This document shows positions 4,921 to 43,455 of a stretch of DNA of 64,000 bases, piece by piece. The notes beneath the pieces are model-generated. The model saw only the letters and a list, made by a program, of their open reading frames with translations, searched no databases and was not told the DNA's origin. The stretch's first letter is position 1. Every line of letters starts with the position of its first letter. The DNA is from a virus: the IMG/VR virus record IMGVR_UViG_3300022745_000023, positions 1 through 64,000 of that record. One strand, written 5' to 3'. A program made the translations under genes and the position numbers.

Positions 4921-4943
4921 GTCGTGACTGCACCTTACGGGCA
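4921..4943 (+). promoter_or_regulatory. Late promoter GTCGTGAC-N3-A-N3-T; +1 on the ATG
   Basis: Motif starts 22 nt before ATG 4943. Confidence 0.8.
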
Positions 4944-7900
4944 TGGATCAGTGCCCGGTAACAATGGAGCCAGTCGGCTCCAATTCTGTCTCTGCCGCGC
5001 TCGCAAGTTCGGGCTGTGAGTGGCGATATGTTCCCTTCGACCGCGAAGGCTGGGAAGGCCAGTTCCCAAACGCCTCGGTATCAACGCCTCTGGGGGAAGT
5101 GGAGATTGCCCCGGAGCGCATTGAAATGCCGGACGTTGGCCTGTCCCTGATCGGCCTGATCCGCCCTGTTCTCGAAAACCCCACCTATGCGGTAAAGCGT
5201 GACAATTCACTCGCGTTTCACCGCCCGGTGATCGGAACCGAGGGGGAAGTAAGGGGCTACGCCACCGTCAACATTCACCCCGATAGGGTGCGTGTCTATG
5301 TGGCGGAACAGCCCGAGGACTTCGACCTGCTCTCGCCCGACGCCACCGGCTCTATGGTGGCCGATGAAGATGGTGATGGCCGGGCCACCTTCAAGTCGTT
5401 CATCTACCGGCATGGGGGTAACGGGGATAACGCTCTGGGGGGTAACTCGGGCGGGGGTAACGAACCTATTGTTGCCGTTACCTCCTTCGACGTCGCCGTA
5501 ACCCTGCTGGGAATTGGCGGCGATCTGCTCAAAGCGGATCACGGCCCCATCCCCGCCGACGCGCGCTGGATCACGGTCCACCCCAACGGGGAGGGAAGCA
5601 AGGGACAGCCCATCCTCGTCGTGCCCGCTGGCGACAAATCCGGCACCTTCCGCGTGATCGGCGGCGCGGGCGGCAAACTCAACATGATGAAGCTGCGCGG
5701 AGTGAAGTCCGAGGCGGATTACAAGGCCGAGTTCGGCGCGCGCGCAAAGGCAAGGCGCGTCTCCAAGAAGGAGCAAGCCCGAAAGGACAAGGAGCTTGGA
5801 ATCGACAAAGCCAAGGCCGAAGCCCGCGATGCCATCCGCAAGCAGCGTACCGAAGCGCAGAAAGCATTCATCAAAACCGTGGCCGAGGCTATGGGGTGGG
5901 GTGATGATGATCTGAAAATGCAGACGAACGGCCTTTCGGAAACGGCGGTAAAAAAGGCGGAAGCGGCGCATCACGCTGATTTGTTGGCAAAAGCCAAGGC
6001 GGCGATTGAGACGCAGCGCAAGATCCTTGTGACTGATTTAGACAAGCGGCTCGCGGCTGGGCTGGGAACGGTCCCGCTCGATGCGCCTATGTCTGAACTG
6101 TCGGTGCAGGATTTGGACCCTGTTCGCATTCCTGATTCGTCGGGGGTTTCGCCTGATTTCAAGGCGCGGGCGGAGGCGAACGGCCTGACGCCTGAAAAGC
6201 TGGATTCTGAACAGGCCAAGGTGCAGGCGCAGGAGGCGGGGGAAGCCCCGGACCCGGCGAAGGCATTGGAGCGCGGGAAGGTGGCCGAGGCGATCCGCAA
6301 GGAGGTAGCCAAGGCGCTGCCAAAGCCTGACCTGCAAGTCTCGATTGCGGATGCCAAGAAGGCGGTGGCGCTTATCAAGGCGCGCAAGCAGCTTCTTGCG
6401 CTGGAAAAGGCGGCGCGGGAGGCGAATGCGGAGGTGGATGCCTCGACTGTCGAGCCGAAGGCCTATGTTCTGAAAGTCTCGGAAACTGGCGATGATGAAG
6501 TGGCGGCGCAGGTGGTTGATGATCTGCGGACGGCGCGCGCGGCGGCGTTTCTGGCTGGCGTGGAAGGGGCTGGCGGTGAAAACGAGGTCCAGCCGCATAT
6601 CAGCGCCGGGGCTTACAACGCGATCAACGCGCTCTCGCAAATCACTGGTGGCGCTTCGCTGATTGATCGGTCTGTCGTTGATGTGCTTGGGGTGGCCGGC
6701 GCCGCGCAAGTGGTGGCAAACCGGCTGCACGCGGAATACGGGGGCGACGCGCAGAAGGTAGCGGCTGGGCTTGCTGAATATCATGTGGCCAGCGCGCCGG
6801 AGGATCAGAAGGCGGCGCTCGATCAGGCCAAGGAATTGCAGGATGAGGCGGCGAAGATCGAAGTGGACGAGGCCAACTCGACCGCTGACTTGGCTGTCGC
6901 ATCGGCCCTGAACCGCAAGCGGCTCGAATATCTGGCCGACGCGCGCAAGGTGCTGGGGCAAACCCTCGGCCATATGGAGGCGAATGCCTCGCTTATCGCG
7001 GCGCTGGAAGCTGGCCCGCGCGATGGCCTTGAGGTGTCTCTCGGGCGAACGCCTCTTGAGTCGGCCATCAAGCAGCTTTGGGCCATCGGCTTGACCGATG
7101 ATGATTACTCGATTGAGCGCATCGACGGGAATGTTTTCGCCAAGGTCAATGCGGATGGCATGGCCAAGCTGGCCGCCCCGGTGGACAAGGAAAACCTTGA
7201 GCGGGTGAACCGCAACCTCGGCATCATGCAAGGCGATCAGGACGAAGATGATTGGCTTCCCGCTGGATTCGCCCGTAGGCCCGATCTGGGGCTTGATCTG
7301 AAACCGGGTGTGGCTCCGGGCCTGTCCGTGCCGTTTGACGCCTCTGCGCCCGATCTGGCGGCTTCTCTGCGCGCCTATATCGGCTCTCGCACCGCCGATG
7401 GCGACCGGGCGGCTGATGTGCTGTCCGATGTGCAGTCTGCATCCTTTTTCCAAAAGGTCGGGCCGGGGCGCGCCAAGGAATACATGGCCGCGCTGAATGC
7501 GGTGATCCCGACCAAGAACGGCAAGAGCCTCACGCGCGTTGAAGAACTGGCCCCGGTGTTCGACGGGTATGCCGATGAGTTTGTGCAATCCAAGTGGGGC
7601 GGCACGCGCTCGACGCTGAACAAGCAATCCTTCGAGCCGGATGCCATCGCACAAGAGGCGCTGCACCGCGCTCTGTCCGATGAACCGGCTGGGACGCTGG
7701 CTTATAAGCCGATTGGGGAACTGTCGCCCAAGGACCGGCACGCGCTGCGCGATTGGTTCTATCGAAACATTGCCAAGGAATCGCCTGAACAGGCCGAATT
7801 GCGCGCGCACGCCGAAAAGCTGGCCGAGCAGGAGCCGGAAAAGTTCACGACCGATATGTTCGGGGACACCACAGCCAACCCGGCGTGGAACGATTGGAAA

Positions 7901-10024
7901 GCCGAATACGACGCAGCGCAGGGCAAGGTCAATGACGCCTCCCTCGACTGGAACCGCTATAGCAAGATGCTGCGTGGCAATGTCCGGGCGCTGGAAACCG
8001 TGCAAGACCTGATCCGCTCGCGCGTCTCGGAAAACTTCGCCAAGCATCACAACACGCTTCGCCCGAATGCCGCGCTCAAGGTCGGCACAACCGTTGTGCG
8101 GAACAACCTCAACCATCTGTCGGCCACGGACCCGGTGGAGCGGGAAAAGCGCCTGTCGATGGAGCGAAGCCTCATTGACGGCCTGCGCGCGCGCATCAAG
8201 GGCAAATATGCGGGTGGGTCTGTCGCGGACAAGATCGAGGCTACCAAGGCTTATGAGGCCGCGTTCAATCAGGCACAAATGGGATTCTTCGCCTCCGATG
8301 ATCTGTTCGGCGGGGAAGGGGGCGAGAAGCCTCTGGGCGGGGATGAGCGCCGCACCATCGGCCATGCCGCCGAAAACATGATCGGCAAGATGATGGGTGT
8401 GGTCGGGGGGCAGTTCAAGCCGGGCCAGCCGGTGAAGCTGTTCAACCCGTCTATGTCCGGCAAGGGCGTGAACCGTCAGCGCGCGATCAAGATGATCGGG
8501 CAGAACAAGCGCGTGATCCTCGCGGCGGGGGTCGGTAGTGGCAAGACCGGGATGATGATGGGCGCGTTCTCAGACCTGCACTCCAAGGGGCAGGCCAAGA
8601 AGGGCTTGTTTGTCGTGCCGTCCATTGTGCAGGGGCAGTTCGGCGCGGAGGCGCTGCGCTTCCTCGAACCCGGCAAGTTCAAATGGCACGCTGAACCGGG
8701 CGCGTCGTATCAAGAGCGGCTGGCCGCGTACAAAGACCCGGACACCCATTTTTCGGTGGTGACGCACCAGTCGTTTCGTGACGATGTGCTTCGCATGGCG
8801 GTTGACGCGGGTATGGGGAAGTCGCCCGAGGCGGTGGCCGACGCGCTGGCGGGCATGGATGATGCCGGGCAGGCTAAGTTCGTCAAGTCGGTGCTGGATC
8901 ATCACGGCGTGGCCTTCGACTTCACGGCGGCGGATGAGGCCCACAACCTGCTGGACCGGGAAGGCAAGGAAGACTCGCGCATGTCGAACGTGATCGGCGG
9001 CGTGACGGCCAATGCTCCCTATTACGTCCATGCCTCCGGCGACCCGGTGAAGAATGACGCCTCCGAAGCCTTTTCGCTGCTGCAAAAGATGGACCCGGCC
9101 CGGTATAACGACCGGGGCGCGTTCATGCGGCGCTATGGCGGCGACACGCTGGCGGCGAAGGAGGGCCTGCAACGTGAACTGGCACGCCATCAATTTTCGT
9201 TCTCGCTCTCGCCTGATGTGAAGGTGGATCGTTCCGAGGTGTCGATCAAGCCGTCTGATGCTCAACAAGCCGCTCTGGCAACGCTGGAAAAGCAGGCGGC
9301 GGCGCTCCGTATCGCCAAGATGACGGGCAAGGTCGATGTGGACGCGGCTAAGGCTCTGTCGCCTCACCTATTCGAGGGCGCCGATGAAGGCCAGCATGAA
9401 GCCATCGCGCGCAAGGTCGCGGATTCGGTCGGCATTATCAAGCAATCGGCCTACCGGCGCATTCTCGACGCGCATCCGGCGGCGGCAAAGCTGTCGCACG
9501 TTGCCGAGGCGGCGGCGGCGCGCAAGGGCAAGCCCGGCGTGGTGTTCGCGCACTCGCTGGAAGCTGTTGAAGCAATCCGCAAGCGGCTGGAAGCGGATGG
9601 CCATCGGGTGACGACGCTCACCGGCAAGGACTCGTCTGGCGATAAGGCCGACAAGATCCGCGCGTTCAACCCGGATAAGGGTGAAGCCAAGGCCGACATT
9701 ATCGTCTGCTCTGATGCTGGCGCGACTGGCGCGAACCTGCAATCTGGCCGATGGCTGGTGCAATACGACACGCCCGATACCGCGATGGTTCACGCTCAAA
9801 GGGCGGGCCGCATCAACCGCATCGGGCAAAAGAACGCGCTGGAATTGATCGACCTCGTTTCGGATCATCCATCCGATGCGCGCGCCCGGCGCCGGCTGGC
9901 GAACAAATACGACCTGCGCGAACTTCTCACCTCGCCGCTCGATGGGCTTGATGACACGCCCCTTGCTTATGCGCTAAAGCAGGCTGGATTCGGGCAGTCG
10001 AAACAACAGGCATCGCTTTTCTAA
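4943..10024 (+). CDS. Large polyvalent protein with C-terminal SNF2/SF2 helicase; probable head cargo
   Basis: AAGVGSGKT, AADEAH, ASGDP, DAGATGANLQ, QRAGRINRIGQ; N-terminal TPLGEV..IRPVLENP (PBECR-like). Confidence 0.88.
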   Translation: MDQCPVTMEPVGSNSVSAALASSGCEWRYVPFDREGWEGQFPNASVSTPLGEVEIAPERIEMPDVGLSLIGLIRPVLENPTYAVKRDNSLAFHRPVIGTEGEVRGYATVNIHPDRVRVYVAEQPEDFDLLSPDATGSMVADEDGDGRATFKSFIYRHGGNGDNALGGNSGGGNEPIVAVTSFDVAVTLLGIGGDLLKADHGPIPADARWITVHPNGEGSKGQPILVVPAGDKSGTFRVIGGAGGKLNMMKLRGVKSEADYKAEFGARAKARRVSKKEQARKDKELGIDKAKAEARDAIRKQRTEAQKAFIKTVAEAMGWGDDDLKMQTNGLSETAVKKAEAAHHADLLAKAKAAIETQRKILVTDLDKRLAAGLGTVPLDAPMSELSVQDLDPVRIPDSSGVSPDFKARAEANGLTPEKLDSEQAKVQAQEAGEAPDPAKALERGKVAEAIRKEVAKALPKPDLQVSIADAKKAVALIKARKQLLALEKAAREANAEVDASTVEPKAYVLKVSETGDDEVAAQVVDDLRTARAAAFLAGVEGAGGENEVQPHISAGAYNAINALSQITGGASLIDRSVVDVLGVAGAAQVVANRLHAEYGGDAQKVAAGLAEYHVASAPEDQKAALDQAKELQDEAAKIEVDEANSTADLAVASALNRKRLEYLADARKVLGQTLGHMEANASLIAALEAGPRDGLEVSLGRTPLESAIKQLWAIGLTDDDYSIERIDGNVFAKVNADGMAKLAAPVDKENLERVNRNLGIMQGDQDEDDWLPAGFARRPDLGLDLKPGVAPGLSVPFDASAPDLAASLRAYIGSRTADGDRAADVLSDVQSASFFQKVGPGRAKEYMAALNAVIPTKNGKSLTRVEELAPVFDGYADEFVQSKWGGTRSTLNKQSFEPDAIAQEALHRALSDEPAGTLAYKPIGELSPKDRHALRDWFYRNIAKESPEQAELRAHAEKLAEQEPEKFTTDMFGDTTANPAWNDWKAEYDAAQGKVNDASLDWNRYSKMLRGNVRALETVQDLIRSRVSENFAKHHNTLRPNAALKVGTTVVRNNLNHLSATDPVEREKRLSMERSLIDGLRARIKGKYAGGSVADKIEATKAYEAAFNQAQMGFFASDDLFGGEGGEKPLGGDERRTIGHAAENMIGKMMGVVGGQFKPGQPVKLFNPSMSGKGVNRQRAIKMIGQNKRVILAAGVGSGKTGMMMGAFSDLHSKGQAKKGLFVVPSIVQGQFGAEALRFLEPGKFKWHAEPGASYQERLAAYKDPDTHFSVVTHQSFRDDVLRMAVDAGMGKSPEAVADALAGMDDAGQAKFVKSVLDHHGVAFDFTAADEAHNLLDREGKEDSRMSNVIGGVTANAPYYVHASGDPVKNDASEAFSLLQKMDPARYNDRGAFMRRYGGDTLAAKEGLQRELARHQFSFSLSPDVKVDRSEVSIKPSDAQQAALATLEKQAAALRIAKMTGKVDVDAAKALSPHLFEGADEGQHEAIARKVADSVGIIKQSAYRRILDAHPAAAKLSHVAEAAAARKGKPGVVFAHSLEAVEAIRKRLEADGHRVTTLTGKDSSGDKADKIRAFNPDKGEAKADIIVCSDAGATGANLQSGRWLVQYDTPDTAMVHAQRAGRINRIGQKNALELIDLVSDHPSDARARRRLANKYDLRELLTSPLDGLDDTPLAYALKQAGFGQSKQQASLF

Positions 10025-14977: not shown

Positions 14978-15576
14978 GATGCGTTGATCCTCCGCAAGAG
15001 GGCTTCGATCTTTTCGGCTATAACGGCATTCCGACTGGCCTTGGCTGCACCATCTGCCGTATCTTTGGCCCGGTGCAGGGCCTCGTAGTTCCGAAAGGTG
15101 GTGGCGCATTCGGTCATGAGTTCAATCGCGTCTCGCTCTGCATTGGGATCGCAATTCCATGCCCCGACCTTCTGGCGTTGTTTGGCGCGCTCGACCATCA
15201 TGGAAGTGGCAGTTTGGTATGCCTGTCGTGCAAAAACATCGGAAGGCATAGACCTATCGGTTTGCGCGATAAGCCCGGTCAAGGCCGCCGCCGCAAACTT
15301 GTCCAGCAAGTCAAACTCGGCCTTCTCGATCAACTGCGCCATAGCCGCGCTTTCGTGGCGAAGGCTCTGCTCTGCCTCAATGACACGGTCGGCCAGCTTG
15401 TCGGCAGACTTTTTGCTGGTTTTGATGGCGCAAGCCAAGCACTGCGCTGCATACTTGGACACGCCGAACATGTGCTCCGAGCAAGAGCCGCAAACCCCCG
15501 TATAGCCCCCCGGCGCATACCCCGCCAAAGGCCATTCAACGCCTTCAAGGCTTGCCGCATTTTTCTGTTCGATCAC
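14974..15576 (-). CDS. Mosaic hypothetical early protein
   Basis: GYAPGGY..C..C..CLAC and DKFAAAALTGL motifs. Confidence 0.7.
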   Translation of the reverse strand: MIEQKNAASLEGVEWPLAGYAPGGYTGVCGSCSEHMFGVSKYAAQCLACAIKTSKKSADKLADRVIEAEQSLRHESAAMAQLIEKAEFDLLDKFAAAALTGLIAQTDRSMPSDVFARQAYQTATSMMVERAKQRQKVGAWNCDPNAERDAIELMTECATTFRNYEALHRAKDTADGAAKASRNAVIAEKIEALLRRINAS

Positions 15577-16028
15577 TTGCCGCTCTCCGTGTTGCTGGCG
15601 CTAAGGGTGTGGGTCGCCTGAATGATCGGTTCGGCGCAAAGGGCGAGAAGCACAAGCGAGCCGGCGAGGATCACCAAGGGCAGAACCTTGTATTTGAAGA
15701 CCCGGCCAAGGGTCGGAAGCGGGGCGGCGCATTCCGTGCAGGCGGAAAAACCGGAATCATCCTCGGGCATGATCGGCTCATCGCGGCGCGGCGTGGCCAA
15801 ATCGACCATCGCAGGGCTGAAAGCCTCGGCCTCGATTTCGTTGTTGCTGGCGCTTCTAGCCTTTGCGCTAAGGTCGGTCATAGCGTCCACGATTCGACGC
15901 ACGGTGCGGCGGCTGATCCCGCAATCAAGCGCGATCTGACTGATGGAGTCGCCGTACTTATGGCAAAGCAAGACGGTAGCGTCGAGTTCAGCCTTGCTAT
16001 CGAACTTTCCCGTTGTGGTATTGGCCAT
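15573..16028 (-). CDS. N-terminal HTH plus C-terminal TM protein; first gene of the leftward early operon
   Basis: SISQIALDCGISRRTVRRIV; VLPLVILAGSLVLLALCA. Confidence 0.7.
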   Translation of the reverse strand: MANTTTGKFDSKAELDATVLLCHKYGDSISQIALDCGISRRTVRRIVDAMTDLSAKARSASNNEIEAEAFSPAMVDLATPRRDEPIMPEDDSGFSACTECAAPLPTLGRVFKYKVLPLVILAGSLVLLALCAEPIIQATHTLSASNTESGK

Positions 16029-16133: not shown

Positions 16134-16156
16134 GTCGTGACAAAAGAATGCGAGCA
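16134..16156 (+). promoter_or_regulatory. Late promoter; +1 on the ATG
   Basis: GTCGTGAC-AAA-A-GAA-T, 22 nt before ATG 16156. Confidence 0.8.
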
Positions 16157-17055
16157 TGAATTTGACGCTGGCCCCTGATGATGAGGTTTCGCTGCTGGAT
16201 CGCGTTCCCGCGTTCCTGTCAGTGTCGGACCTGCTGAAAGCTACTCCGGTGACGGAGGGGGATAACCGCTTCGTGTATTTCGAGGCGTCGAATGAGTCTG
16301 TGGATCAGCAAGGCGAAGTGGTGCTCGCCAAGGCCCTTGCGGAGTCCGCCGCCTATTACCTGCAATTCGGCAACCTCGACATTGACCACTACACCCAGAT
16401 TGGCGCGAAGCTGGGCATTCCCAATTACGAACTGTTCGAGATTGGCCGTCCTATCGATGTTCGCTTGGATCGTGGCTCGACCTTCGTAAAGGCGCAGGTC
16501 TATCGTGGCGAAGGGCCGGCTGCTGAACAGGCCAACGGCTTTTGGTCGTCGGTAACGGACCTCTCGCCGCCTAAGCGCTGGTTCCCGTCTGTGGGTGGCA
16601 AGGTTATCTCCAAGGCCATCACCATTGACCCGGCCACCAAGGCGAAGCGCGCCATTATCGAAAAGGTGCGCTGGTCGAATGTCGGCCTGTCGCGTATGCC
16701 GGTTAATGCGAATTTGGCGACCGTTTCAACGGTCCCGTTCGGCGCCCTGACCAAGTCGCTGTGCGCCGAGGGCTTTGATTTCGCGAAAGCGATGGAGGCC
16801 GGTTACGGCACAGACGCGGCAACGCTGTCAGGTGCGGGCGCGCTGCGCCGGCAGTCGCTTGAGCCGAACCTGCTTTCGTATTGGGATTTTCGGGATGGCC
16901 TCGCGGACCTGATCCGCAAGGGCAAGGTCAGTGGGGGAAAGCCTGCTGAATTGGTAAGGGTCGCTCAAGACCACTTCGGCATGTCTCCCGACATTGCCGC
17001 TGCCTCGGTTGAGCGGTTTTTGAGCGATCTTTCGCAACACAGGAGGAAGCAATGA
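16156..17055 (+). CDS. Prohead (capsid maturation) protease
   Basis: EASNESVDQQGE, DIDH, SVGG, PVN motifs; position before scaffold and capsid. Confidence 0.82.
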   Translation: MNLTLAPDDEVSLLDRVPAFLSVSDLLKATPVTEGDNRFVYFEASNESVDQQGEVVLAKALAESAAYYLQFGNLDIDHYTQIGAKLGIPNYELFEIGRPIDVRLDRGSTFVKAQVYRGEGPAAEQANGFWSSVTDLSPPKRWFPSVGGKVISKAITIDPATKAKRAIIEKVRWSNVGLSRMPVNANLATVSTVPFGALTKSLCAEGFDFAKAMEAGYGTDAATLSGAGALRRQSLEPNLLSYWDFRDGLADLIRKGKVSGGKPAELVRVAQDHFGMSPDIAAASVERFLSDLSQHRRKQ

Positions 17056-30313: not shown

Positions 30314-30739
30314 ATGGCATCTACCAATCTCAAGACGCGCAGCGGCAACCGCGTCGTGGTGTCGTTCGATGGCAAGCAGATTGGCCTTGTCCAGTCCGTT
30401 CGCATGAACGATGACTATGGCCCGGAACCGGCTTCCGGCATCGGGGACATTCATGTTCAGGAATACGTGCCGACCATGGCGCGGCATTCGCTTTCGGTGT
30501 CCAGCATGGTCCTCTTTGTCGGCGCAATGCGCGAGGCCGGGCTGACTGCTGAAAACGGCGATGCTGTCCTGCAAGGGCTTGTTTTCGACATTACCGTTTT
30601 CTCGAAGGATGACGGCTCACAACTTCGCAAGTACGTCGGCTGCTCCTATGCGTCCGGCGATGTGGAAGTGAATAAGCACGCAATCATCATGGCGAACGGC
30701 CAGTTCAACGCGCTCGATGTGAGCGGCACCGGCCTGTAA
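30314..30739 (+). CDS. Tail tube protein
   Basis: 141 aa after the sheath; GAGG RBS. Confidence 0.85.
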   Translation: MASTNLKTRSGNRVVVSFDGKQIGLVQSVRMNDDYGPEPASGIGDIHVQEYVPTMARHSLSVSSMVLFVGAMREAGLTAENGDAVLQGLVFDITVFSKDDGSQLRKYVGCSYASGDVEVNKHAIIMANGQFNALDVSGTGL

Positions 30740-31085: not shown

Positions 31086-31690
31086 TTCCGGCGCTGGCCA
31101 AGGTTTACATTCCTCTCTTGGGGTCGGTCACGGCAGCGCTGTGGCCGACCATGCCTGACAGGCCGACGCTGGCGGCGCAGATTGAGCAAGAAACGTGCGC
31201 CTCGTTGACCAGCAAAAAGTGCTGGAACCCCAAGGCTGAACTCAAAACCTCGCGGGAATACGGCTTCGGCCTCGGCCAACTCACGGTAACGCCGCAATTC
31301 AACAATTTCAAGGCGGCGAAGGGCTGGGATCGCTCCCTTGCCGGTTGGGAGTGGTCTGATCGGTTCGACCCGGCGATGCAGCTTCGCGCGCTGGTGGCCT
31401 ACGACCGCAATCTCTATTTGCAGGTGAAGTTTGCTGCGACGCCGGAGGATCGGCTGGCGTTCACCTTCTCTGCCTACAACGGCGGCCTAGGCGGTGTCTT
31501 GAAAGACCGGCGCATGTGCGCCGCAATCAAGGGCTGCAATCCGAATGTCTGGTTTGGGCATGTCGAGCGGCACTCGTTCCGCTCCAAGACTGCCGTCAAG
31601 GGATATGGCCAGTCCTTTTTCGATGTGAATCGTGGCTATGTCCGCAACATCATGGTCATCAGGGCCGTGAAGTATAGGGGGCTTCTGTGA
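31082..31690 (+). CDS. Endolysin, SLT-family lytic transglycosylase
   Basis: QIEQET, GLGQ, AYNGG. Confidence 0.9.
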   Translation: MIPALAKVYIPLLGSVTAALWPTMPDRPTLAAQIEQETCASLTSKKCWNPKAELKTSREYGFGLGQLTVTPQFNNFKAAKGWDRSLAGWEWSDRFDPAMQLRALVAYDRNLYLQVKFAATPEDRLAFTFSAYNGGLGGVLKDRRMCAAIKGCNPNVWFGHVERHSFRSKTAVKGYGQSFFDVNRGYVRNIMVIRAVKYRGLL

Positions 31691-32211
31691 CTGGTCCTTC
31701 GCACGGCGTATCTCGCAAGATTTCCGAGTTCATCAACTACCCCGATCATGCCGCGCGCACTACATCGGCGGAATTTTCGCGCAACCGGCGCCAATTGCTG
31801 GTCAAGCTGGATTTGCCCTGCTTCATCTGCCAGAGCCGCGACCATCGGGAAGTGCATCACCTGATCGAGTGGAGCCTGTTTCCGGCCATCGATACGGAAA
31901 AGATGCTCGACACGCTGCATCTTTTTGACCCCTACGGCTTCACTCACCAAATGGGCGAGAAGCCCATTGAATCCCCCGACGACATTCGCAACCTGCTCGT
32001 TCTGTGCGGCCATTGTGAGGTGGATGGGACGCCGGTTCCCGGCGGCCATCATCGCGGGATCAATGCGGGCATCCATGAATTGACGTTCCCGATCTGGATC
32101 GCACAGCGATGCGCCAAGGATGGCATGTCGATCACGAAGGCGATTTTGCATGTGCAGGATCTTGACGCTGTTCTGCGCGGCGGTCGGAAGCCTCAACCGA
32201 AAAAGGAGTGA
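31687..32211 (+). CDS. HNH-like (His-Me finger) protein inside the lysis cassette
   Basis: CFIC..EVHH..NLLVLC..HHRG. Confidence 0.65.
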   Translation: MTGPSHGVSRKISEFINYPDHAARTTSAEFSRNRRQLLVKLDLPCFICQSRDHREVHHLIEWSLFPAIDTEKMLDTLHLFDPYGFTHQMGEKPIESPDDIRNLLVLCGHCEVDGTPVPGGHHRGINAGIHELTFPIWIAQRCAKDGMSITKAILHVQDLDAVLRGGRKPQPKKE

Positions 32212-32215: not shown

Positions 32216-32809
32216 ATGTTCGGGAACCTTTTGCGTTTTGTTGGAGGCCAGTCATTTTTGTCTGGCTTTACGCTTTGGGTGGCGCTTGGCATTGCGATTT
32301 CGTCGTTCGGCGCGGGCTGGACTGTGCGCGGCTGGCGCGCGGATGCGAAAGAGGCCAAGGCTGAAACCAAGGCCGTCACGCAAACGCTGGTGCGCCAGCA
32401 AGCCGGGGACGCTGTCATCGCCAAGGCCGATGTGGAAAACCGGCAAATCGTTTATCGGTACGTCACGCGGTGGCGCACCATTGACGCCGCATCTGCTGCG
32501 GTGAAGGAGGAAGCACGCGATGCTGAAAATCAAGCTGCCGTTTCTGGTGCTCCCGTTGTCGGCCTGTCTCCTGAATGGGTGCGCCTCTACAACGCCGCCC
32601 TCCGCCCCGGTGGTGGTGAAAATCAGGGCGCCGGAGGAACTGTTGGCCCGGCCAGCGGAGCCGATCAGCCTGCCGCCGACGCGCCGACCGAATGGGACGT
32701 CCTCTCGAACCACATCGAAAACGCAAAACGCTGGTCAGAATGCCGCGCCCAACTCAACGCATTGATTGATGTAGAGAAAGGTGGCCAGACTGGCGTCGTG
32801 ACTCCATAA
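32216..32809 (+). CDS. Rz: i-spanin (Rz-like)
   Basis: N-terminal TM, periplasmic helical domain. Confidence 0.78.
   Translation: MFGNLLRFVGGQSFLSGFTLWVALGIAISSFGAGWTVRGWRADAKEAKAETKAVTQTLVRQQAGDAVIAKADVENRQIVYRYVTRWRTIDAASAAVKEEARDAENQAAVSGAPVVGLSPEWVRLYNAALRPGGGENQGAGGTVGPASGADQPAADAPTEWDVLSNHIENAKRWSECRAQLNALIDVEKGGQTGVVTP
32520..32765 (+). CDS. Rz1: o-spanin lipoprotein embedded in Rz (+1 frame)
   Basis: Signal peptide with LLNG-C lipobox, Pro-rich; AGGAGG RBS. Confidence 0.8.
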   Translation: MLKIKLPFLVLPLSACLLNGCASTTPPSAPVVVKIRAPEELLARPAEPISLPPTRRPNGTSSRTTSKTQNAGQNAAPNSTH

Positions 32810-32851
32810 ACCGTGCTTGCGGGCATTTGGCTGATGGGGGACTGTTGAGGG

Positions 32852-33307
32852 ATGGATCGCGTGGCTGAAATTAAGGAAGCGGTAGAAAGTGCGAAGGCTC
32901 AAGCGGCCTTGGAAGCGGCGATCAATTCGCTGACTGGCGAGGTCAAACGCCTCACCATCACGGTTGACGAAAACAACCGGCGACTTGAGCGCGTTTCCGT
33001 TCTCGAAGCGAATCACGACACTCAAAGCAATGCGCTTGGCCGTGCCTTTGATGAGATTGAAGAACTTCGCAAAGACGTCGAAGGAGAAATCTCTGAAATC
33101 CGGCGCGAGGTGGGGGCTGCGAGGTCTGAAAACGCCACCGAACACAAGGGCTATGACCGCTACATTTGGGTCTGCATCGGATTCGCATCGGCCATCTCAA
33201 TCATGTGGTCCATCCTCGGCTATCGCCTGAATCAGGCTCTTGACCAGCACCAGTCCACCATTGCGCGCATGGAGGCCTACATGGACGCGAATGTGGGGAA
33301 GAAGTAA
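32852..33307 (+). CDS. Coiled-coil protein with C-terminal TM (XhlA/holin-accessory-like)
   Basis: Heptads followed by YIWVCIGFASAISIMWSILG. Confidence 0.6.
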   Translation: MDRVAEIKEAVESAKAQAALEAAINSLTGEVKRLTITVDENNRRLERVSVLEANHDTQSNALGRAFDEIEELRKDVEGEISEIRREVGAARSENATEHKGYDRYIWVCIGFASAISIMWSILGYRLNQALDQHQSTIARMEAYMDANVGKK

Positions 33308-33893: not shown

Positions 33894-34119
33894 CACCTAT
33901 GCCTTCTGGTTCCGCCGAAAATACAACTTGCCCCCGAATGATCCTCGCTTTCTCGAACTAACGCCGGAGGACGTTGAGGCGGAATATTGGGCGCATTACT
34001 ACGCCGAAAATTCCGGCAAGGGCGAGGAATATGAAGATGATGACCTCGATGTTGCGGCAATCATGGAAAGCCTTGCCGCTGGTTCTGCTGATGATTGGGA
34101 GGAAGTAATCAATGGTTGA
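33841..34119 (+). CDS. Tail assembly chaperone extension (T), probably reached by +1 frameshift
   Basis: +1 frame open from TCC TTT CGC; WFRRKYNLPPNDPRFL. Confidence 0.65.
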   Translation, partial: FAKESPKAAKVKGRELHDTYAFWFRRKYNLPPNDPRFLELTPEDVEAEYWAHYYAENSGKGEEYEDDDLDVAAIMESLAAGSADDWEEVING

Positions 34120-37100
34120 CCCCAAAATCCGCATTTCCGCTGATGTATCGGCAGTCGAGGCCGCGCTTAAGAAGGTGAATGATGCTGCGCGGCAGGTAAA
34201 CCAAACGCTCCTTGATGCTGGCCCCGGCGCAGCACAGGCGGGCATGGAAGAACTTGGCAGCTCGGCATCCGAACTGGTCGATTCGCTCGATGATGTGAAG
34301 GAATCCGGGGAAGCGGTCAGCAAGATCGACTTCGGTGCGGTGGCGAAGGCTTTGGCTAACGCTGAAAAGGTCGCCGCCGCGCTCGAAAAGGCGTTGAAGT
34401 CGATTGGTAAGACCACGGCGATTCCCGCTGCGGTGAAGGATGCCAAGGCCCTTTCTGACGGGCTGGAACGCGCGGCCAAAGCGCAACGTCTTTTGGCACA
34501 AGATGGTGTCCATCTTTCTCGCCAGCAATCGGAAGAAGCAAAGCGCCAGTTTGACCGCTGGCGCACCTCTGGCGCGCGCGGCACTTCGCGCCTGCGCGGG
34601 CAGGAATTTGACGACTGGCTCTCCGGGGGCTGGCGCAATTATTCGATGAACGAATCCGAGGCCCGCCGCCAGCGCGCCCGCGTGCTGCAATCCATCGGCG
34701 TGAATATGCCGGGTGGGGGTGGTGGATCTGGCGGCAGTGGGGCTGGTGGTGGGATGTCTGCTGGCCGTGGCCGCTGGGGTGCGATTGCTGGGGCTGTCGG
34801 CGGCGCCATGGGGTCGATGCTCCAAGGTGGCGATGGCGGGATGCTGTCGGCGGCGGGGGGCGGCCTTGGCTCTTTGATCGGGGCTGGCGCTGGCGCGGTG
34901 TTCGGTGGCCCTGTGGGCGCTGCTGTCGGCCTTTTTGCGGGCAAGCTGCTGGGTGGCGCAGGATCGGCACTCGATGCCGCTGTGGGCCGCGTTGTTGAGC
35001 AAAACTCCGGCCTGACTGACCTTCGTCATTCGCTCGGCGCAACTGTCACCGATTTCGACACGCTGCGCGAATCGCTGATGTATTTCACCGACAAGCTGGG
35101 CGTGACCGGGCAAGAATCAGTCCGTCTGGCGCAGGCTTTTTCGAGCGCGGCTGGCAAGACCATCGCCGCCGCCGATTTGAGCAAAAGTGTCGGTGGCAGT
35201 GTCGCATTTGCGCGTGGCTACGGCTTGGACCCGGCGCTTGCCACTCAATTTTTTGGCTCGATGCGCCATTTCGGCGTGTCGAATAATGCCGAAGGCGACA
35301 AGCGCCTTGCGCTGTTGATTGGCGAGGCTATCGGCAAAAGCGGCATGAATGCCAAGATGGGCGACTTCATGACGGCGCTGCAATCCTATGTCGAAACGCA
35401 GAGCCGGACTTCCCTGACGCAGGCCAATACCTCGGCCTATGCCTCGTTCATGTCGTCGATGACGGGCCTGAATTTGACCGGCCTCAAGGGCGATCCTCAA
35501 ACGGCCATGTCGGCTATGGGGGCTGCGGACGCGGCGCTTCGGCAAGGCGGTGCATTCGGTGAAGCATCAAAGATGTTCACGCTGGGCATGTACCAGCGAA
35601 TGCTCCCCGGCTTTAACGTGTTCGGCATGGGCTTCCTGAACGATCAGGGCGCGTTTGGCACGGTGGGGCGGGCTTTTGGTGATGAATCCCCGGCTATGGC
35701 TATGGCGCGCGCTATGGGGGACCGCCGCACGCAAGCGCAACTCAAGCGTTGGGCTGGGGCCGGTGGTTCTGGCCAGTCGATGCTCGCATTGCAGATGCGC
35801 TCTCTTGAAAGCCGCTATGGCTCTGGCGGCGCGTTGGTGCTGAATCAGGCGATTCAGGGCCACTTAGGGGTCAACGCCGATCAGGCGGCGGCTCTCTATA
35901 CCGCATACAAGTCCGACAAGGGGCTGGGCGGGCTGTCCAAGACGCTTGGCGCTGCGGGCATCGACATTGGCAAGGTCGATGCGGGCCGGGTGGCCGCGCT
36001 GGCGCAAGTGGCTGGGATGGATCGTGCCGGCATTCGCGGTGAAGCATCCCGCCTGCTCAACTCTGGCCAACTCAACGAGGGTGAGCGCGGCAAGCTGAAC
36101 GCGGCATTGCAGGCTGGAAAGGATGACGATCTAAAAAAGATGGTCCTCAACCTGACTGCCCTGCACGATACGACGCGCGACTCCGGGCAGGCCATGCGTG
36201 AACAGCAAGCGAATATGGCCCGCTATCTTGAACAGATTGTGACCGTTGGCATTCCCTATATTCAAATGATTAAGGAAGGCATCACGGCGCTTGCACAGAA
36301 AATAGCGCCAGATTCAAATTTTGCCAAGAATGCAGCGCGTGAAGAAAATCTTATTAAGGCAAAAATTGCTGATACTTCTTTGCAAAAAGATTTTGACAAT
36401 ATTCAGGCCATGCCTGATGGGGCGGCGAAGAGTGCAGAAATTAATCGATACAACTACAATCTTGGATTGCGGCAAAAAATGCCGGATGCAGCCCCATCTT
36501 CTTTGCAAATGCTTGATAAGAATGGCAACACTTTTACGATAAGGGATGGTGGATCAAGCAAGGGCGCGCTTTTTAATGACTATGAATGGTTCAAGAGTAA
36601 GGGCGTGCCTGACCACATTGCCAAGGCTGTTGCTGCGGGCATCTATGCGGAAGGCGGCGGCCTAGGCTATGCCAGAAATGGTGCATTTGGGATTGGCCAA
36701 TTGCGCGGAGATCGATTGCAGCGCGCATTTGCTCGTTATGGCAAAGACCCGACGCGGGATAAGCTGACGCGCGATGAACAACGAGAATATATACTGTGGG
36801 AACTGCAAGGCGGTGATCCCGGTGGTGCCTCGGTCATGTCCTCTCGTAACGAGGAAGAGGCGGTTTCCAATTATGTCGGGCAAACCAATCCTGACGGGAA
36901 AACGGGCTGGGGGTTCATGCGCCCAGCGGCGGGGCGTGAGCGCAAAGGTGATCTGAATCGCGCAACGGAAGCTCTTATCTCTCTTAGGAAGTCGCCTAGT
37001 CAGGAAGCCTTTGAAAAGGCGCATAGCCATACGTCGCAAGACGGCAAGATTCCCAAAGCACACCGACCGCTCATGCTGCAACCGGGCGCAGAAGCGTATA

Positions 37101-37234
37101 CCGGAGCGTGGCCGGCTTCGCATCAGGTGGTTGAGCATCGCGTTACCGTCCTCGACGCGAACGGCACGCCGCATTACAACTCCACGACGCAAACGCGAAT
37201 CGGCCATCCGGTTCCTGCTGGGGTGTCGCACTGA
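34112..37234 (+). CDS. Tape measure protein with C-terminal phage-tail-lysozyme domain
   Basis: 1040 aa A/G-rich; GIYAEGG..GAFGIGQ..Q..YILWEL. Confidence 0.88.
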   Translation: MVDPKIRISADVSAVEAALKKVNDAARQVNQTLLDAGPGAAQAGMEELGSSASELVDSLDDVKESGEAVSKIDFGAVAKALANAEKVAAALEKALKSIGKTTAIPAAVKDAKALSDGLERAAKAQRLLAQDGVHLSRQQSEEAKRQFDRWRTSGARGTSRLRGQEFDDWLSGGWRNYSMNESEARRQRARVLQSIGVNMPGGGGGSGGSGAGGGMSAGRGRWGAIAGAVGGAMGSMLQGGDGGMLSAAGGGLGSLIGAGAGAVFGGPVGAAVGLFAGKLLGGAGSALDAAVGRVVEQNSGLTDLRHSLGATVTDFDTLRESLMYFTDKLGVTGQESVRLAQAFSSAAGKTIAAADLSKSVGGSVAFARGYGLDPALATQFFGSMRHFGVSNNAEGDKRLALLIGEAIGKSGMNAKMGDFMTALQSYVETQSRTSLTQANTSAYASFMSSMTGLNLTGLKGDPQTAMSAMGAADAALRQGGAFGEASKMFTLGMYQRMLPGFNVFGMGFLNDQGAFGTVGRAFGDESPAMAMARAMGDRRTQAQLKRWAGAGGSGQSMLALQMRSLESRYGSGGALVLNQAIQGHLGVNADQAAALYTAYKSDKGLGGLSKTLGAAGIDIGKVDAGRVAALAQVAGMDRAGIRGEASRLLNSGQLNEGERGKLNAALQAGKDDDLKKMVLNLTALHDTTRDSGQAMREQQANMARYLEQIVTVGIPYIQMIKEGITALAQKIAPDSNFAKNAAREENLIKAKIADTSLQKDFDNIQAMPDGAAKSAEINRYNYNLGLRQKMPDAAPSSLQMLDKNGNTFTIRDGGSSKGALFNDYEWFKSKGVPDHIAKAVAAGIYAEGGGLGYARNGAFGIGQLRGDRLQRAFARYGKDPTRDKLTRDEQREYILWELQGGDPGGASVMSSRNEEEAVSNYVGQTNPDGKTGWGFMRPAAGRERKGDLNRATEALISLRKSPSQEAFEKAHSHTSQDGKIPKAHRPLMLQPGAEAYTGAWPASHQVVEHRVTVLDANGTPHYNSTTQTRIGHPVPAGVSH

Positions 37235-38706
37235 TGAAGGTCTTTCAGCCGCAAGTTTCGGTCAAGCTGGTGAAGGCTATCCGGCGCGACAAAAGTGGCG
37301 GCATTGTGCCGGGAACGGCGGTGGCCTCGCGCTACCAAAATCTGGCATCCATCGACCTCACTAATTTCTTGGGAGACAACGGCAGCGTTCAGACTTCAAA
37401 GTCCGTGCGCGAACCGGCTGGCGGCTTCACGATCACATTGGCCGATAAGCGGCATCCCCAAATGCTCGACACGCTGTACGCGCTGATTGAGCCTATGGAT
37501 ATGGTTGAAATTCGGTTTTGCCGTGACCCGTCCTCCTACAAGCAACCGGACCTTTGGCCACCGATCATCATGCGCGGGCTGGTGACAACCGTTTCGCGTT
37601 CGGAAGCAATTCCGGGTGGGCGCCCGACCCGCTCTATCACGATTGCGGGGCAGGACTTTGGCAAGATCCTGCAAACCATCCAGATTTACTATCTCTACAA
37701 CTCGGTGGTTGGCGATAACGTGCTGCACGAGTTCGCCTTTTTCCAGAAATATGCCTCGGCCAGTTCGGCCAAGATCAAATCGGCCAATGAGTTTGTGACC
37801 GAAGTGGTGTCGAACGTCATCAACCCTTACCTATCGCGCCTGACTGCGCTGGCGGATGGGAGCGCGGTATCTGCGAAGGTCATCAATGCGTGGACGCCGG
37901 TTGTCTCGATTGCCGGCGCGCTGACGCCGGATGCGGTCTGTTCGATGAACAACATCTCGCTGCACTCTTTCCTGTCCACCCTGCTTGATGTGGGGCCGTT
38001 CAACGAATTGTTTGTCGAAGATGCTACCGATGGCATCAACTTGGTAGTGCGCCCGGCCCCGTTTATGGACGTTGCCGGGAACCTCATCCAAGGCGAAATG
38101 CCTGCGGTCAATTCGATCACGGACAAGGAAGCCCTGTCGCTGTCGCTCTCGCGTTCTGACCAAGGCGTTGCCAACTATTTCTGGGTTTCAAACTCGCGCT
38201 TTGCCTTCATGGGCAATGAGGACCAGAAAGCGTGGGCATCGACTGGCTCCCCGGATTCGTATCTCAAGTTCGACTATCTCAATTCGCAAAGCGCCTATTA
38301 CGGGTTCCGCAAAATGGAGGTCGAATCGGTTTTGGTTGATCCGGGCTATGGGAGCATAGACGCCCAAACCAAGGATCAACTTCCTGCCCAGAACAGTAAA
38401 ATGACCGATTGGTTGTCGGAGCGGCGGCGCATTTTGGCCGAATCCAACAAGGACAACGTGATCTTCGAGTTTGGGCAAATGCAGGTGCGCGGCGATGAGC
38501 GCATCAAGGCCGGAACCTACCTGCGCTTGAACCGTGCAAACGGGGTCACTTCGCAGTTCTATGTGCCGCAAGTGAATCATAGCTACACGCCGTTCCAAGG
38601 CTTCTTGACCAACCTGACGCTGGAACGCGGAACTTCCTTCATTGAGCGCGCGAAAGCTGGTAATCCGCAATACCTGCTTGAGGTAAATGCGAAGGGGATT
38701 TCTTGA
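37234..38706 (+). CDS. Baseplate hub protein
   Basis: Follows the TMP; GDERIKAG..V.H..T...LERG. Confidence 0.75.
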   Translation: MKVFQPQVSVKLVKAIRRDKSGGIVPGTAVASRYQNLASIDLTNFLGDNGSVQTSKSVREPAGGFTITLADKRHPQMLDTLYALIEPMDMVEIRFCRDPSSYKQPDLWPPIIMRGLVTTVSRSEAIPGGRPTRSITIAGQDFGKILQTIQIYYLYNSVVGDNVLHEFAFFQKYASASSAKIKSANEFVTEVVSNVINPYLSRLTALADGSAVSAKVINAWTPVVSIAGALTPDAVCSMNNISLHSFLSTLLDVGPFNELFVEDATDGINLVVRPAPFMDVAGNLIQGEMPAVNSITDKEALSLSLSRSDQGVANYFWVSNSRFAFMGNEDQKAWASTGSPDSYLKFDYLNSQSAYYGFRKMEVESVLVDPGYGSIDAQTKDQLPAQNSKMTDWLSERRRILAESNKDNVIFEFGQMQVRGDERIKAGTYLRLNRANGVTSQFYVPQVNHSYTPFQGFLTNLTLERGTSFIERAKAGNPQYLLEVNAKGIS

Positions 38707-39440: not shown

Positions 39441-39463
39441 GTCGTGACTGCAATGTGCCGTCA
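39441..39463 (+). promoter_or_regulatory. Late promoter; +1 on the ATG
   Basis: GTCGTGAC-TGC-A-ATG-T, 22 nt before ATG 39463. Confidence 0.8.
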
Positions 39464-41223: not shown

Positions 41224-42327
41224 ATGTTCCAGCTTAAAGATTTCGCCTCAATCACCGCTTCGATGATTAACCGGGCGAAAGCAACCCAGAAGAAAGTGAC
41301 CGATTTCAATGTCGGCTCGGTCGTTCGCACCATTCTGGAATCGTCGGCCATTGAAATTGAAGAACTGTATCAGCGCATGTTTGCCGGGATCATGGATGCG
41401 ATCCCGGTGGCGATCTACCGGGGTTTCAACTTCGCCATCTTGGAACCGACGAAAGCGCGCGGCGTTGTCGTGGTCAACTTCGCTGGTCCGATTGTCGATC
41501 CGTTCACGGTCCCTGCGGGAACGATCTTTACCGCGCCGGGCACGGGCCTGCGCTATTTGTCGGAAGCCGCAACCACCGCGATTGTCGGCTCGACGTCGCT
41601 GTCCATGATCGTTGACGCAGCAGACACCGGCTCGATCTACAACACCGATGCGAACACGATCACCACGGTGTCCGGGTTTTCGTTTCCAATCGGCGCGGTC
41701 ATCGGAAATACGCCGATCACGTCGGGCTCGGACGGTGAAACCGAAGCCGAGCGCATGTCGCGCTTTGCGGCCTACATTCAGTCGATTGCGCGCGGGACGG
41801 TGCCGTCTGTGGAGTATGCCGCTTCCACCGCCGTGGTCCGCGACCCGGCGGGCAGTGTGGTCGAGTACGTATCGCGCGTGGCGTCCTCCGAAGTTCCGGG
41901 CCGCATCGACGTCTACATCTATGGCTCGGGCGGTATCGCCAGCAGCGCCCTGATCGCGGATGCGCAAAGAATTATCGACGGCTATTTTGACTCCGTTCAG
42001 CAGGCGTTCGTGCCGGGCTATCGGCCTGCCGGGGTGGATGCGCTGGTTTCTCCAATGTTCGAAGAACCCTACAACCTGACGGTCACAGTCGCGCTGGTGA
42101 CGGGCTATTCGTTTACCACCGACCTGAAAAACGCCGTCATCACGGCGGTGGATGGAGTGATCAACAGCGTGGTGGCTGGCAAAACCTTGTATGTGGAGGA
42201 CTTGTCTGCGGCGGTTCTGTCTGTCCCCGGAATCCGTTCTGTCCGCCTGAGCGCGACGGAGAATCACTTGTGCCCGGCCAATGTCGTCCTTACTCCGGGG
42301 ACGATCTTGGTCCAGCTTGAGGTGTGA
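41224..42327 (+). CDS. Baseplate J-like wedge protein
   Basis: DFNVGSVVRT, GSDGETEAER..R, RGT. Confidence 0.9.
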   Translation: MFQLKDFASITASMINRAKATQKKVTDFNVGSVVRTILESSAIEIEELYQRMFAGIMDAIPVAIYRGFNFAILEPTKARGVVVVNFAGPIVDPFTVPAGTIFTAPGTGLRYLSEAATTAIVGSTSLSMIVDAADTGSIYNTDANTITTVSGFSFPIGAVIGNTPITSGSDGETEAERMSRFAAYIQSIARGTVPSVEYAASTAVVRDPAGSVVEYVSRVASSEVPGRIDVYIYGSGGIASSALIADAQRIIDGYFDSVQQAFVPGYRPAGVDALVSPMFEEPYNLTVTVALVTGYSFTTDLKNAVITAVDGVINSVVAGKTLYVEDLSAAVLSVPGIRSVRLSATENHLCPANVVLTPGTILVQLEV

Positions 42328-42330
42328 TCG

Positions 42331-43455
42331 ATGCTCGATGTTCGGGAGCGCCTTGCGAGTCACCTCTACCGAAGCGGACTGGACACCGATTCGGATAGCG
42401 TTCCCGCGCTGGGAATCGATTTCAACAACGTTTTGTGGTGGAAAGACACCACTCTTAATTGGTCCGTCGATGGCCGCAGCCTGACGCTTTATCCGGGGGC
42501 GACGTTTGAGCGGGTCTATCCGCTCACCGGCACGCTCGGTGAACTGGCGGCGCAACTCACCGCAGACGGGTTCGATGTTTTGTCGCTGAATCCCGACCTT
42601 GTGAACTTGTCTGCGGGGATTCTGCTCAATCCTGATCGCAACAAAAAGCAGCCCGCTGGTCGCCCGATCCACGCCTTCCAGTCGGACTTGTGGGCGCTTT
42701 TGGATGCCTATGGCGTGGAGATCACCGACGCCGAGGTAAACGTCGAGCAGGCGATCCAGCAGTTGTATCTGCAAACCGCCGAGAGCGACATTCTCGATTT
42801 CTGGGGCGAGTTCTTTGCCGTCACGCGCAAAAACGGCGAAGTTGATGACAACTATCGCGCACGGATGATTGCCGAGGTCTTTCAGCCTCGCTCGAACGCG
42901 ATTGCGATCCAGAACGCAATTAAATCGCAGACCGGGTTCGACGTGACGATCCGCGAGCCGTGGCGCGAGTTGTTCCTACTCAATCAATCGGCGCTGTCGG
43001 ATCAGGACCATTTTCAGGACGGTTCGTTCTTCACGTGGAACGTGCTGCAGCCCATTTACCATTCAAGCCTTTCGGTTGCTGAGCGCGCAGCGGTCATCGA
43101 CATCATCAACCGCAATCGACCGGCTGGCTGCGTTCTGCTGGGTGAGCTTGCGCAGCCGCCTGCATCGTTTGCCTCGACTCACTTTGGGGTTGGCTTGCTG
43201 TCGAGCATCACCGCCCACTATTACATCGGCTGGCTGCATTTCGAGCCGGGCGTGGTCAGTTCGTCGCTGGCGCTTTCGGACTACTCCCCGGACGTTGCGG
43301 CTCCGTTTGTCTGGACGCAACAGGGCAACCTTGAGTTTATTTTTGGCTCTGCTCCGCTGGGCCTGTTTGTGCCATATAGCTGGTCCGGTGGTTGGGATGA
43401 CAGGACTTGGAACAAGGGTTTTGTTTCGACGGTCGTGACACAACAATCGGTCTAG
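42331..43455 (+). CDS. Baseplate wedge (gpI-like)
   Basis: LDFWGEFF..R..GE.DD.YRAR, RPAG. Confidence 0.8.
   Translation: MLDVRERLASHLYRSGLDTDSDSVPALGIDFNNVLWWKDTTLNWSVDGRSLTLYPGATFERVYPLTGTLGELAAQLTADGFDVLSLNPDLVNLSAGILLNPDRNKKQPAGRPIHAFQSDLWALLDAYGVEITDAEVNVEQAIQQLYLQTAESDILDFWGEFFAVTRKNGEVDDNYRARMIAEVFQPRSNAIAIQNAIKSQTGFDVTIREPWRELFLLNQSALSDQDHFQDGSFFTWNVLQPIYHSSLSVAERAAVIDIINRNRPAGCVLLGELAQPPASFASTHFGVGLLSSITAHYYIGWLHFEPGVVSSSLALSDYSPDVAAPFVWTQQGNLEFIFGSAPLGLFVPYSWSGGWDDRTWNKGFVSTVVTQQSV
43432..43454 (+). promoter_or_regulatory. Late promoter
   Basis: GTCGTGAC-ACA-A-CAA-T, A at +22. Confidence 0.72.

Follow-up and report, generated by a model that had tools for sequence, protein, structure and literature searches.

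The window analysed here comprises the first 64 kb (positions 1 to 64,000) of the 89,634-bp IMG/VR virus record IMGVR_UViG_3300022745_000023, and it carries a recurrent 16-mer, GTCGTGAY-NN-nAnnnT, which is probably a phage-specific, factor-dependent late promoter that lacks a -35 element and often gives rise to leaderless messages. The analysis confirmed the motif together with its strand bias, placement and conservation and its fixed geometry towards start codons; its function as a promoter, the position of the start, the requirement for a factor and leaderless translation are inferred from these. Factor-dependent late promoters with no -35 element and with leaderless messages are a category already known; the box described here appears to differ from those of the known sets. 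The record has a CheckV completeness of 98% and represents a phage of ~90 kb, a myovirus by its identified genes. The phage is temperate, as judged from its own integrase, from the provirus class given in IMG/VR to its relative G002 and from loci in 25 bacterial genome records that bear Zn1, a small phage protein considered below.

The octamer GTCGTGAC occurs nine times on the + strand of the window and is absent from the - strand, with 1.66 copies expected, and none of 100 shuffled sequences reached nine. The full pattern, GTCGTGAY-N3-A-N3-T, has nine matches in the window, all on the + strand, against 0.19 expected, and the whole 89.6-kb genome contains 12 on the + strand and none on the - strand. 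The matches in the window include the variant octamer GTCGTGAT at 25062, while two other copies of GTCGTGAT, at 21761 and 44668, are without the conserved A and T and look incidental. An initial annotation of this DNA had noted these boxes, and its coordinates were correct for all nine copies of GTCGTGAC and for GTCGTGAT at 25062; the invariable A and T, at the 4th and 8th bases after the box in the first nine copies, agree with what it described. The copy at 32795, which it had called weaker, has an exact octamer and is weaker only in the 8th base after the box, which is A and not T.

Ten of the 12 full-pattern copies lie between genes; of the other two, one overlaps the final 24 nt of a gene and one is within an endonuclease open reading frame (ORF) inserted after the capsid gene. 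The genes that follow the 12 copies all belong to the virion or to packaging, and those that could be named encode the helicase, the protease, a tail fibre, an adaptor-like protein and the sheath, the tube, the baseplate, the terminase and the portal. The full pattern is absent from the leftward block at 10-16 kb, from the integrase/immunity region and from the replication and recombination genes. The conserved A and T were taken as positions -11 and -7, which places the octamer at -22 to -15 and makes +22 from the box start the predicted +1. These copies, and the 32795 octamer, are as follows.

4921-4936, + strand: predicted late promoter, box GTCGTGAC followed by TG and CACCTT; predicted +1 at 4943, the A of the helicase ATG.
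16134-16149, + strand: predicted late promoter of the head operon; predicted +1 at 16156, the prohead protease ATG.
20002-20017, + strand: box copy in the 3' part of a T5orf172-type endonuclease ORF; it would serve 20232-20942.
20972-20987, + strand: predicted late promoter preceding 21038-21781 and the gene for a 1059-aa tail fibre/GDSL lipase; predicted +1 at ~20994/20995.
25062-25077, + strand: predicted late promoter with the GTCGTGAT variant, before the tail-fibre-like gene 25096/25204-25881; predicted +1 at 25084 (A).
27361-27376, + strand: predicted late promoter with ATG 27384 at +23 and a one-base leader, ahead of an adaptor-like 278-aa gene and then the sheath gene.
30263-30278, + strand: predicted late promoter before the tube-like gene 30314-30739; predicted +1 at 30285 (A), with a 29-nt leader and a GAGG Shine-Dalgarno (SD) word.
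32795-32810, + strand: doubtful or weak promoter with an exact octamer and the hexamer CATAAA, without T at -7, before 32852-33307.
39441-39456, + strand: predicted late promoter; predicted +1 at 39463, the ATG of a 387-aa virion protein (phrog_1011).
43432-43447, + strand: predicted late promoter in the final 24 nt of gene 42331-43455; predicted +1 at 43454 (A).
64911, + strand, beyond the window: box copy with a visible SD-like word in the leader.
70481, + strand, beyond the window: box copy with the large terminase ATG (70503) at +22.
76459, + strand, beyond the window: box copy with the hexamer TAGGGT and the portal gene downstream.

The head operon at the 16134 promoter consists of the genes for the protease, a scaffold-like protein and the major capsid protein, and the 43432 promoter would serve 43473-43955 and a gene for a 1037-aa protein.

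The anatomy of the motif was examined with a logo of 105 sites from nine genomes, and the offsets of ATG codons from the box were counted over 106 sites from nine genomes. The 50 nt upstream of the box hold no information and there is therefore no -35 element, in agreement with the initial annotation, which had seen none shared. The gap between the octamer and the -10 element is fixed at 2 bp. Among the positions that had not been selected, -14 to -12 favour G, C/G and C, -9 and -8 are A-rich and -1 to +3 read C-A-T-G. The 8th base of the box is T in 28 of the 105 sites (27%), and because this breaks the symmetry, the dyad GTC-N2-GAC to which the initial annotation had drawn attention is probably incidental. 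An extended -10 element, with TGn at -15 to -13, is not present, as the TG of the box lies at -18/-17 and positions -14/-13 are weakly G and C/G. A at -11 with T at -7 and A-rich -9/-8 is the signature of region 2 of the sigma-70 family, and a -10 element in which just two bases are fixed, with C at -12 and neither a -35 nor TGn, is expected to be weak unaided. Promoters of sigma-70 consensus were not enriched in the late region (one found vs 5.1 expected), and scans of the early regions for the same consensus gave chance levels. Terminators ahead of the boxes were enriched in a strict test (7 of 106 vs 22 of 2700), with numbers too few to argue from, and a general terminator scan gave no clear excess there.

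An ATG begins at +22 in 35 of the 106 sites, at +23 in 12 and at +24 in four, compared with ~1.7 at other offsets (P = 8e-33), and in 33 sites the frame that begins at +22 runs for at least 50 codons. In this genome the ATGs at 4943, 16156, 39463 and 70503 stand at +22 and that at 27384 stands at +23; all four at +22 are the first possible start codon of their frame, and the M-I start of the 27384 gene is kept in every relative, at +22 or +23. The placements made in the initial annotation at 4943, 16156, 39463 and 27384 were thereby reproduced, as were the A residues at +22 at 25084, 30285 and 43454, and the gene caller found no SD ahead of the ATGs that it had described as lacking a clear one. 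The remaining sites have leaders of 23-60 nt, with an SD-like word visible in two (30263 and 64911). As the ATG falls at the predicted +1 only in some sites, the arrangement fits a start that is set by the motif and does not suit a signal in RNA that is bound to the start codon. At 79768 there is a one-mismatch box followed by an ATG at +22, which was dropped because that ATG opens only a three-codon frame.

The box regulon and its conserved positions were found again in related phages, both in IMG/VR and in culture. All six IMG/VR contigs that were found by their protease (50-68% identical) have GTCGTGAC-N3-A-N3-T with the protease ATG 22-24 nt from the box start, and five of these records contain 7-17 copies each, essentially on one strand. 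Among cultured relatives there are 13 copies in Touem01, 10+1 in PHB04, eight in ST4, 12 in Dolphis, seven in fHe-Yen8-01 and nine in ECML-606-1, and in four of five cultured relatives a box with an ATG at +22 to +24 stands ahead of the protease gene. The proteins of the relatives that share the box are only ~50% identical. Over nine genomes the box is kept before the protease gene in nine, the adaptor-like gene in nine, the portal gene in eight and the baseplate gene in six; it precedes the orthologue of gene 43473 in all five relatives that have that gene, and the helicase homologues of PHB04 and G002 have the box with the ATG at +22/+23. No copy of the full pattern was found in the Thermus phages Lalka27a and phiMa. 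The initial annotation had proposed an activator-dependent late regulon with leaderless translation, and every sequence test that was run supports a late promoter class of this kind, built of an upstream box and a minimal -10 element: strand specificity, intergenic placement before virion and packaging operons, conservation of both sequence and position at ~50% protein identity and a sharp ATG peak at the predicted +1.

Further features lie at or near some of the boxes. At 25074-25107 there is a perfect 12-bp inverted repeat (CATTCCGGTCAC, 10 nt, GTGACCGGAATG) that overlaps the -10 element and the predicted start (25084) of the 25062 promoter, and, given that its left arm is upstream of the start, it resembles an operator in the DNA more than a hairpin in RNA. 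A terminator-like hairpin and T run at 20997-21023 begins 3 nt past the predicted start of the 20972 promoter, and could represent an attenuator or the end of a very short transcript ahead of gene 21038. The 20002 box lies within ORF 19302-20231, of T5orf172/endonuclease type, which has low GC content at third codon positions, has no homologue in any relative and separates the capsid gene from the head genes that follow; it probably represents the insertion of a homing endonuclease. Finally, a weak match to a sigma-70 region 4.2-type helix-turn-helix (HTH) is encoded at 15573-16028 on the - strand, divergent from the protease promoter.

In the proposed mechanism, host RNA polymerase with its primary sigma factor would read the -10 element through the conserved A (-11) and T (-7), and the octamer at -22 to -15 would substitute for a -35 element and be read by a phage-made factor, which may be an activator that binds DNA or a protein carried by the polymerase. 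Some 12 operons of virion and packaging genes would thereby be silent in the lysogen and would be switched on jointly late in infection. Transcription would begin 7 nt past the T. At ~40% of sites this base coincides with the A of an ATG, and the operon would there open with a gene translated without a leader; in this phage these are the genes for the helicase, the protease, the 39463 virion protein and the large terminase. Sites with no ATG at +1 would give short leaders with an ordinary SD. Because the phage is temperate and the 12 promoters precede lethal late genes, the promoters must be off by default and cannot be constitutive; an activator that reads the octamer, or a factor bound to polymerase, is the economical explanation.

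The same 16-mers might alternatively be read as a whole by a polymerase whose specificity subunit has been replaced or remodelled by the phage, as by T4 gp55/gp33 or MotA/AsiA, with no host sigma-70 at the -10 element and no free activator at the box. The lack of a -35 element, the abutment of the box on the -10 element across its fixed 2-bp gap, C in place of T at -12 and an octamer that is invariant across hosts of three proteobacterial classes would all suit such a polymerase, and two small conserved proteins without a known fold could take on the task. However, the A at -11, T at -7 and A-rich -9/-8 bear the signature of sigma-70-family region 2, no sigma region 2 was detected among the phage proteins, and the model of Zn1, one of that pair, is an alpha/beta zinc protein and not a helical sigma-like domain; we give this explanation a minor though real chance. 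Little probability attaches to a role for the box as an operator, in which promoters that are intrinsically active with a -10 element alone would be silenced in the lysogen by a phage repressor bound to GTCGTGAC. The temperate lifestyle, the overlap of the box with the core promoter and the weak GTC-N2-GAC dyad symmetry would be in keeping with an operator, but promoters with only A and T conserved in the -10 element, with C at -12 and with neither a -35 nor TGn, are unlikely to be active unaided, T at the 8th base breaks the dyad in 27% of sites, and no clade-wide repressor was found among the core genes.

It is scarcely credible that the motif acts in RNA, as a processing site or a translation signal 14 nt before the AUG, on longer transcripts that originate elsewhere. 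A fixed distance to the ATG in ~45% of sites and the strand specificity would be explained, but more than half of the sites have no nearby ATG and precede ordinary SD-led genes 29-60 nt further on, the conserved positions fit a -10 element and not an anti-SD, the octamer forms no stable hairpin and the related geometry of Lalka27a has mapped 5' ends. A role in DNA unconnected with transcription, for example as a target of methylation or restriction, as a signal for packaging or replication or as the scar of a mobile element, has a negligible probability: the phage does encode several DNA methyltransferase-like domains, but the octamer is non-palindromic and confined to one strand, and it sits before operons, keeps its place ahead of orthologues and stands in fixed register with start codons.

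Several points weigh against a factor-dependent late promoter with leaderless messages. Position -12 is mostly C and not T, which is unusual for the -10 element of a primary sigma factor. The Morganella phage Mecenats66, a member of the clade, has no box regulon and no leaderless geometry, and the promoter system must therefore be dispensable. Starts, timing and factor dependence are inferred for the whole clade, and the sole RNA run with sequence of this phage consists of a few short contigs that are uninformative on 5' ends. Leaderless genes are uncommon in the classes to which the hosts belong, with detection in 2 of 117 genomes of Alphaproteobacteria, 9 of 71 of Betaproteobacteria and 15 of 239 of Gammaproteobacteria, whereas in Deinococcus-Thermus they were found in all five genomes tested and made up on average ~39% of genes (PMC3160421). 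It is this contrast that makes the habit of the clade notable. In Mecenats66 (L093-L097) several late genes are preceded by a hairpin and T run that ends at an SD-like G run and an ATG; promoters are not mentioned in the genome paper of this phage.

The nearest tested system is that of the late promoters of Lalka27a. Sixteen late promoters are described there, with a TAGGGT -10 element, a conserved C at -25 and no -35 element; 5' ends from sRNA-seq lie 6 nt past the -10 element for half of the promoters and most transcripts are leaderless (bioRxiv 10.64898/2026.04.20.719267). Lalka27a encodes no phage polymerase or sigma factor, its authors infer a phage factor, and it has a large virion helicase; phage YS40 is given in the same paper as having the same leaderless habit (bioRxiv 10.64898/2026.04.20.719267). 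In the Lalka27a genome TAGGGT-N6-ATG was found to recur, with a GACC-like word ~15 nt upstream. The distance from the -10 element to the ATG is the same in the two phages (ATG at +22 in 35 of the 106 sites here, where the start site is a prediction), and the structural module is related, with capsid proteins 37% identical. The hexamer and the upstream signal differ, however: Lalka27a has TAGGGT, which occurs at just one of the 12 sites of this phage (76459), and its C at -25 lies in a GACC-like word in place of GTCGTGAC at -22 to -15, while -25 holds no information here. Lalka27a also has no full-pattern box and no homologue of Zn1, and leaderless mRNA is normal in Thermus and not in Proteobacteria.

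Phage P1 has 11 late promoters, each with a short repeat that is bound by Lpa (PMC10695390). The initial annotation had drawn an analogy with P1, and the likeness holds at the level of function: about a dozen late promoters in a temperate myovirus of roughly 90 kb, with a -10 element, a short element near -22 and no -35. It does not extend to membership of the P1/Lpa family, from which this phage departs in box, spacing and activator alike. The P1 repeat is of 9 bp (AAGTTACTT, ATGTGACTT) and lies 4-9 bp from the -10 element in the P1 record, whereas here the octamer GTCGTGAY lies at a fixed 2 bp; all P1 late promoters depend on one phage activator, Lpa, of which tblastn found no homologue in this phage; and a start codon stands at the predicted +1 in neither of two P1 late promoters examined. 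The late promoters of T4 (TATAAATA; gp55, gp33 and the clamp) likewise consist of a -10 element alone, with a specificity factor supplied by the phage, but the sequence of the element differs and there is no gp55-like sigma region 2 here. The leaderless mRNA of lambda cI, made from PRM, can be translated in Escherichia coli; it represents a single leaderless gene and not a regulon.

If the proposed late promoter is real, a widespread group of ~90-kb temperate myoviruses would run its entire late programme from one 16-bp promoter. The group takes in phages of Pseudomonas, Bordetella, Aeromonas, Yersinia and E. coli, and loci with Zn1 are present in alpha-, beta- and gamma-proteobacterial records. 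Leaderless translation would apply to some 40% of the first late genes, in bacteria where leaderless genes are uncommon, and the promoters and true start codons of these phages could be annotated by a clean rule. The promoter and its factor could also offer a compact pair for synthetic biology, probably tightly off or on, and a tractable system for learning how a factor next to the -10 element replaces the -35 contact.

Candidates for the reader of the box were sought among the phage proteins. Sigma70_r2 had no match at E <= 1, with positive controls that worked, and P1 Lpa gave a best E of 2.4 in tblastn against this genome and eight relatives. PF00940 (T7-type polymerase) had no match, but the control likewise had none. 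None of the scanned proteins of at least 350 aa matched a polymerase in PHROGs or Pfam, a scan that left aside ORFs 34112-37234, 37234-38706, 41224-42327 and 42331-43455; the named functions among them were helicase, tail fibre, sheath, terminase, portal, methyltransferase-like, integrase and polymerase clamp, and three (43963-47076, 73220-74299 and 78300-79844) have no functional name. No description of a box reader was found in the literature under the isolate names or in the one genome paper that covers them. A 140-aa protein encoded outside the window at 88761-89183 has an N-terminal sigma-70 region 4.2-type HTH (30 bits, above the cut-off) and is not present in the relatives. The genes kept in all relatives are structural or packaging genes, together with an ordinary single-stranded DNA-binding protein (SSB) and two adjacent small proteins, Zn1 and Zn2. 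The SSB (53730-54281) was not retained, since it is conserved but ordinary, and the winged-helix protein 62161-62727 was dropped as an activator because in relatives the box precedes its own gene and because it weakly resembles a small terminase. This left the following pair.

61251-61793, + strand: Zn1, candidate reader or activator, 180 aa, with eight invariant Cys and one invariant His.
61793-62164, + strand: Zn2, candidate partner of Zn1, a 123-aa zinc ribbon that adjoins Zn1 in almost every relative tested.

It is possible, while still doubtful, that Zn1/Zn2 is the factor that reads the box. More specifically, we tentatively suggest that Zn1 and Zn2 may form a new kind of late-transcription factor that redirects proteobacterial polymerase with its primary sigma factor to the GTCGTGAC box at -22 to -15 and so governs a leaderless regulon. 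The invariant residues of Zn1 are C19, C32, C53, C56 and H62, a ribbon of C81/C84/C97/C100 and the motif NRE..E..G.NAKG..P. Its model (pLDDT 89.5) is a mixed alpha/beta zinc protein; Foldseek returned no match in the PDB at E <= 0.001, and the best VIA-align Z was 4.1, for the C-terminal alpha/beta part only. Zn1 fell into no family of Pfam or PHROG, an Atlas search returned unnamed viral clusters only, and the family numbers 928 cluster representatives at E <= 0.001.

A link between Zn1 and the box, which is circumstantial, is favoured by several observations. Among 50,697 phage records Zn1 is confined to this clade, and a full box lies within 10 kb in at least 17 of the 25 bacterial loci with a Zn1 homologue. 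In Cupriavidus ulmosensis a box stands 22 nt ahead of the ATG of Zn1 itself, and another box in divergent orientation lies 18 bp further upstream. In one representative (P0136) Zn1 and Zn2 are fused. The pair also lies at the end of a recombination (NinB) block, just before late-type genes; lambdoid phages keep Q at the corresponding place, at the end of the recombination block before the late genes. Seven representatives of the family (P0049, P0082, P0083, P0086, P0105, P0109 and P0111) have an N-terminal extension of ~70 aa, which in two matches a winged helix below the Pfam threshold and in five more shares the sequence by eye. On the other side, co-occurrence inside one clade is not independent evidence. 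Mecenats66 keeps Zn1 and Zn2 yet is without the box regulon, and its Zn1 has NSQG for NAKG, a motif whose third residue is K or R in every genome that has the box; this is a single case. A 53-kb phage with a fusion of a winged HTH and Zn1 has one box and no regulon. The box is identical wherever it is present, which leaves nothing in it for Zn1 to covary with. The two divergent boxes 18 bp apart precede a short Zn1 homologue in C. ulmosensis (L081:9950-10010) and also in L084 and L085, and could reflect autoregulation in a different kind of element.

The closest cultured phages by capsid protein are 44-50% identical and comprise the Pseudomonas phages Touem01, Dolphis and Jeremy, Bordetella PHB04, Aeromonas ST4, Yersinia fHe-Yen8-01, Morganella Mecenats66, Escherichia ECML-606-1 and Enterobacter phiT5282EW; the Thermus phages Lalka and phiMa follow at 37-39%. 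A megablast of 24 kb of the phage against the 50,697 phage records gave no match, and the protease, used as query against bacterial genome contigs, found no matching prophage. One freshwater metatranscriptome contains 7% of the sampled sequence words, with contigs of 245, 190 and 253 nt that match it fully or nearly so and another that matches in part, over 36 nt. The near-identical contigs, from a 2018 library, cover 28229-28473, 28625-28814 and 31576-31829, which places this phage, or one nearly identical to it, in that sample, whether as RNA or as DNA carried over. The principal genes to which the text refers are listed below.

4943-10024: SF2 helicase, virion-type, 1693 aa.
16156-17055: prohead protease.
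17738-19189: major capsid protein.
28489-30201: sheath.
30314-30739: tube-like virion protein.
From 39463: baseplate block, with the 387-aa virion protein (phrog_1011) as its first gene.
50384-51445: integrase.
64956-68663, beyond the window: 1249-aa multidomain protein with a methyltransferase-like segment.
70503-73094, beyond the window: large terminase.
76504-78297, beyond the window: portal.

The large late proteins encoded at 4943-10024, with its C-terminal SF2 helicase, and at 64956-68663 are both probably injected polyvalent proteins. The Dolphis counterpart of the 1249-aa protein is annotated as an ADP-ribosyltransferase, and the 4943-10024 helicase resembles the 'large virionic helicase' of Lalka27a.

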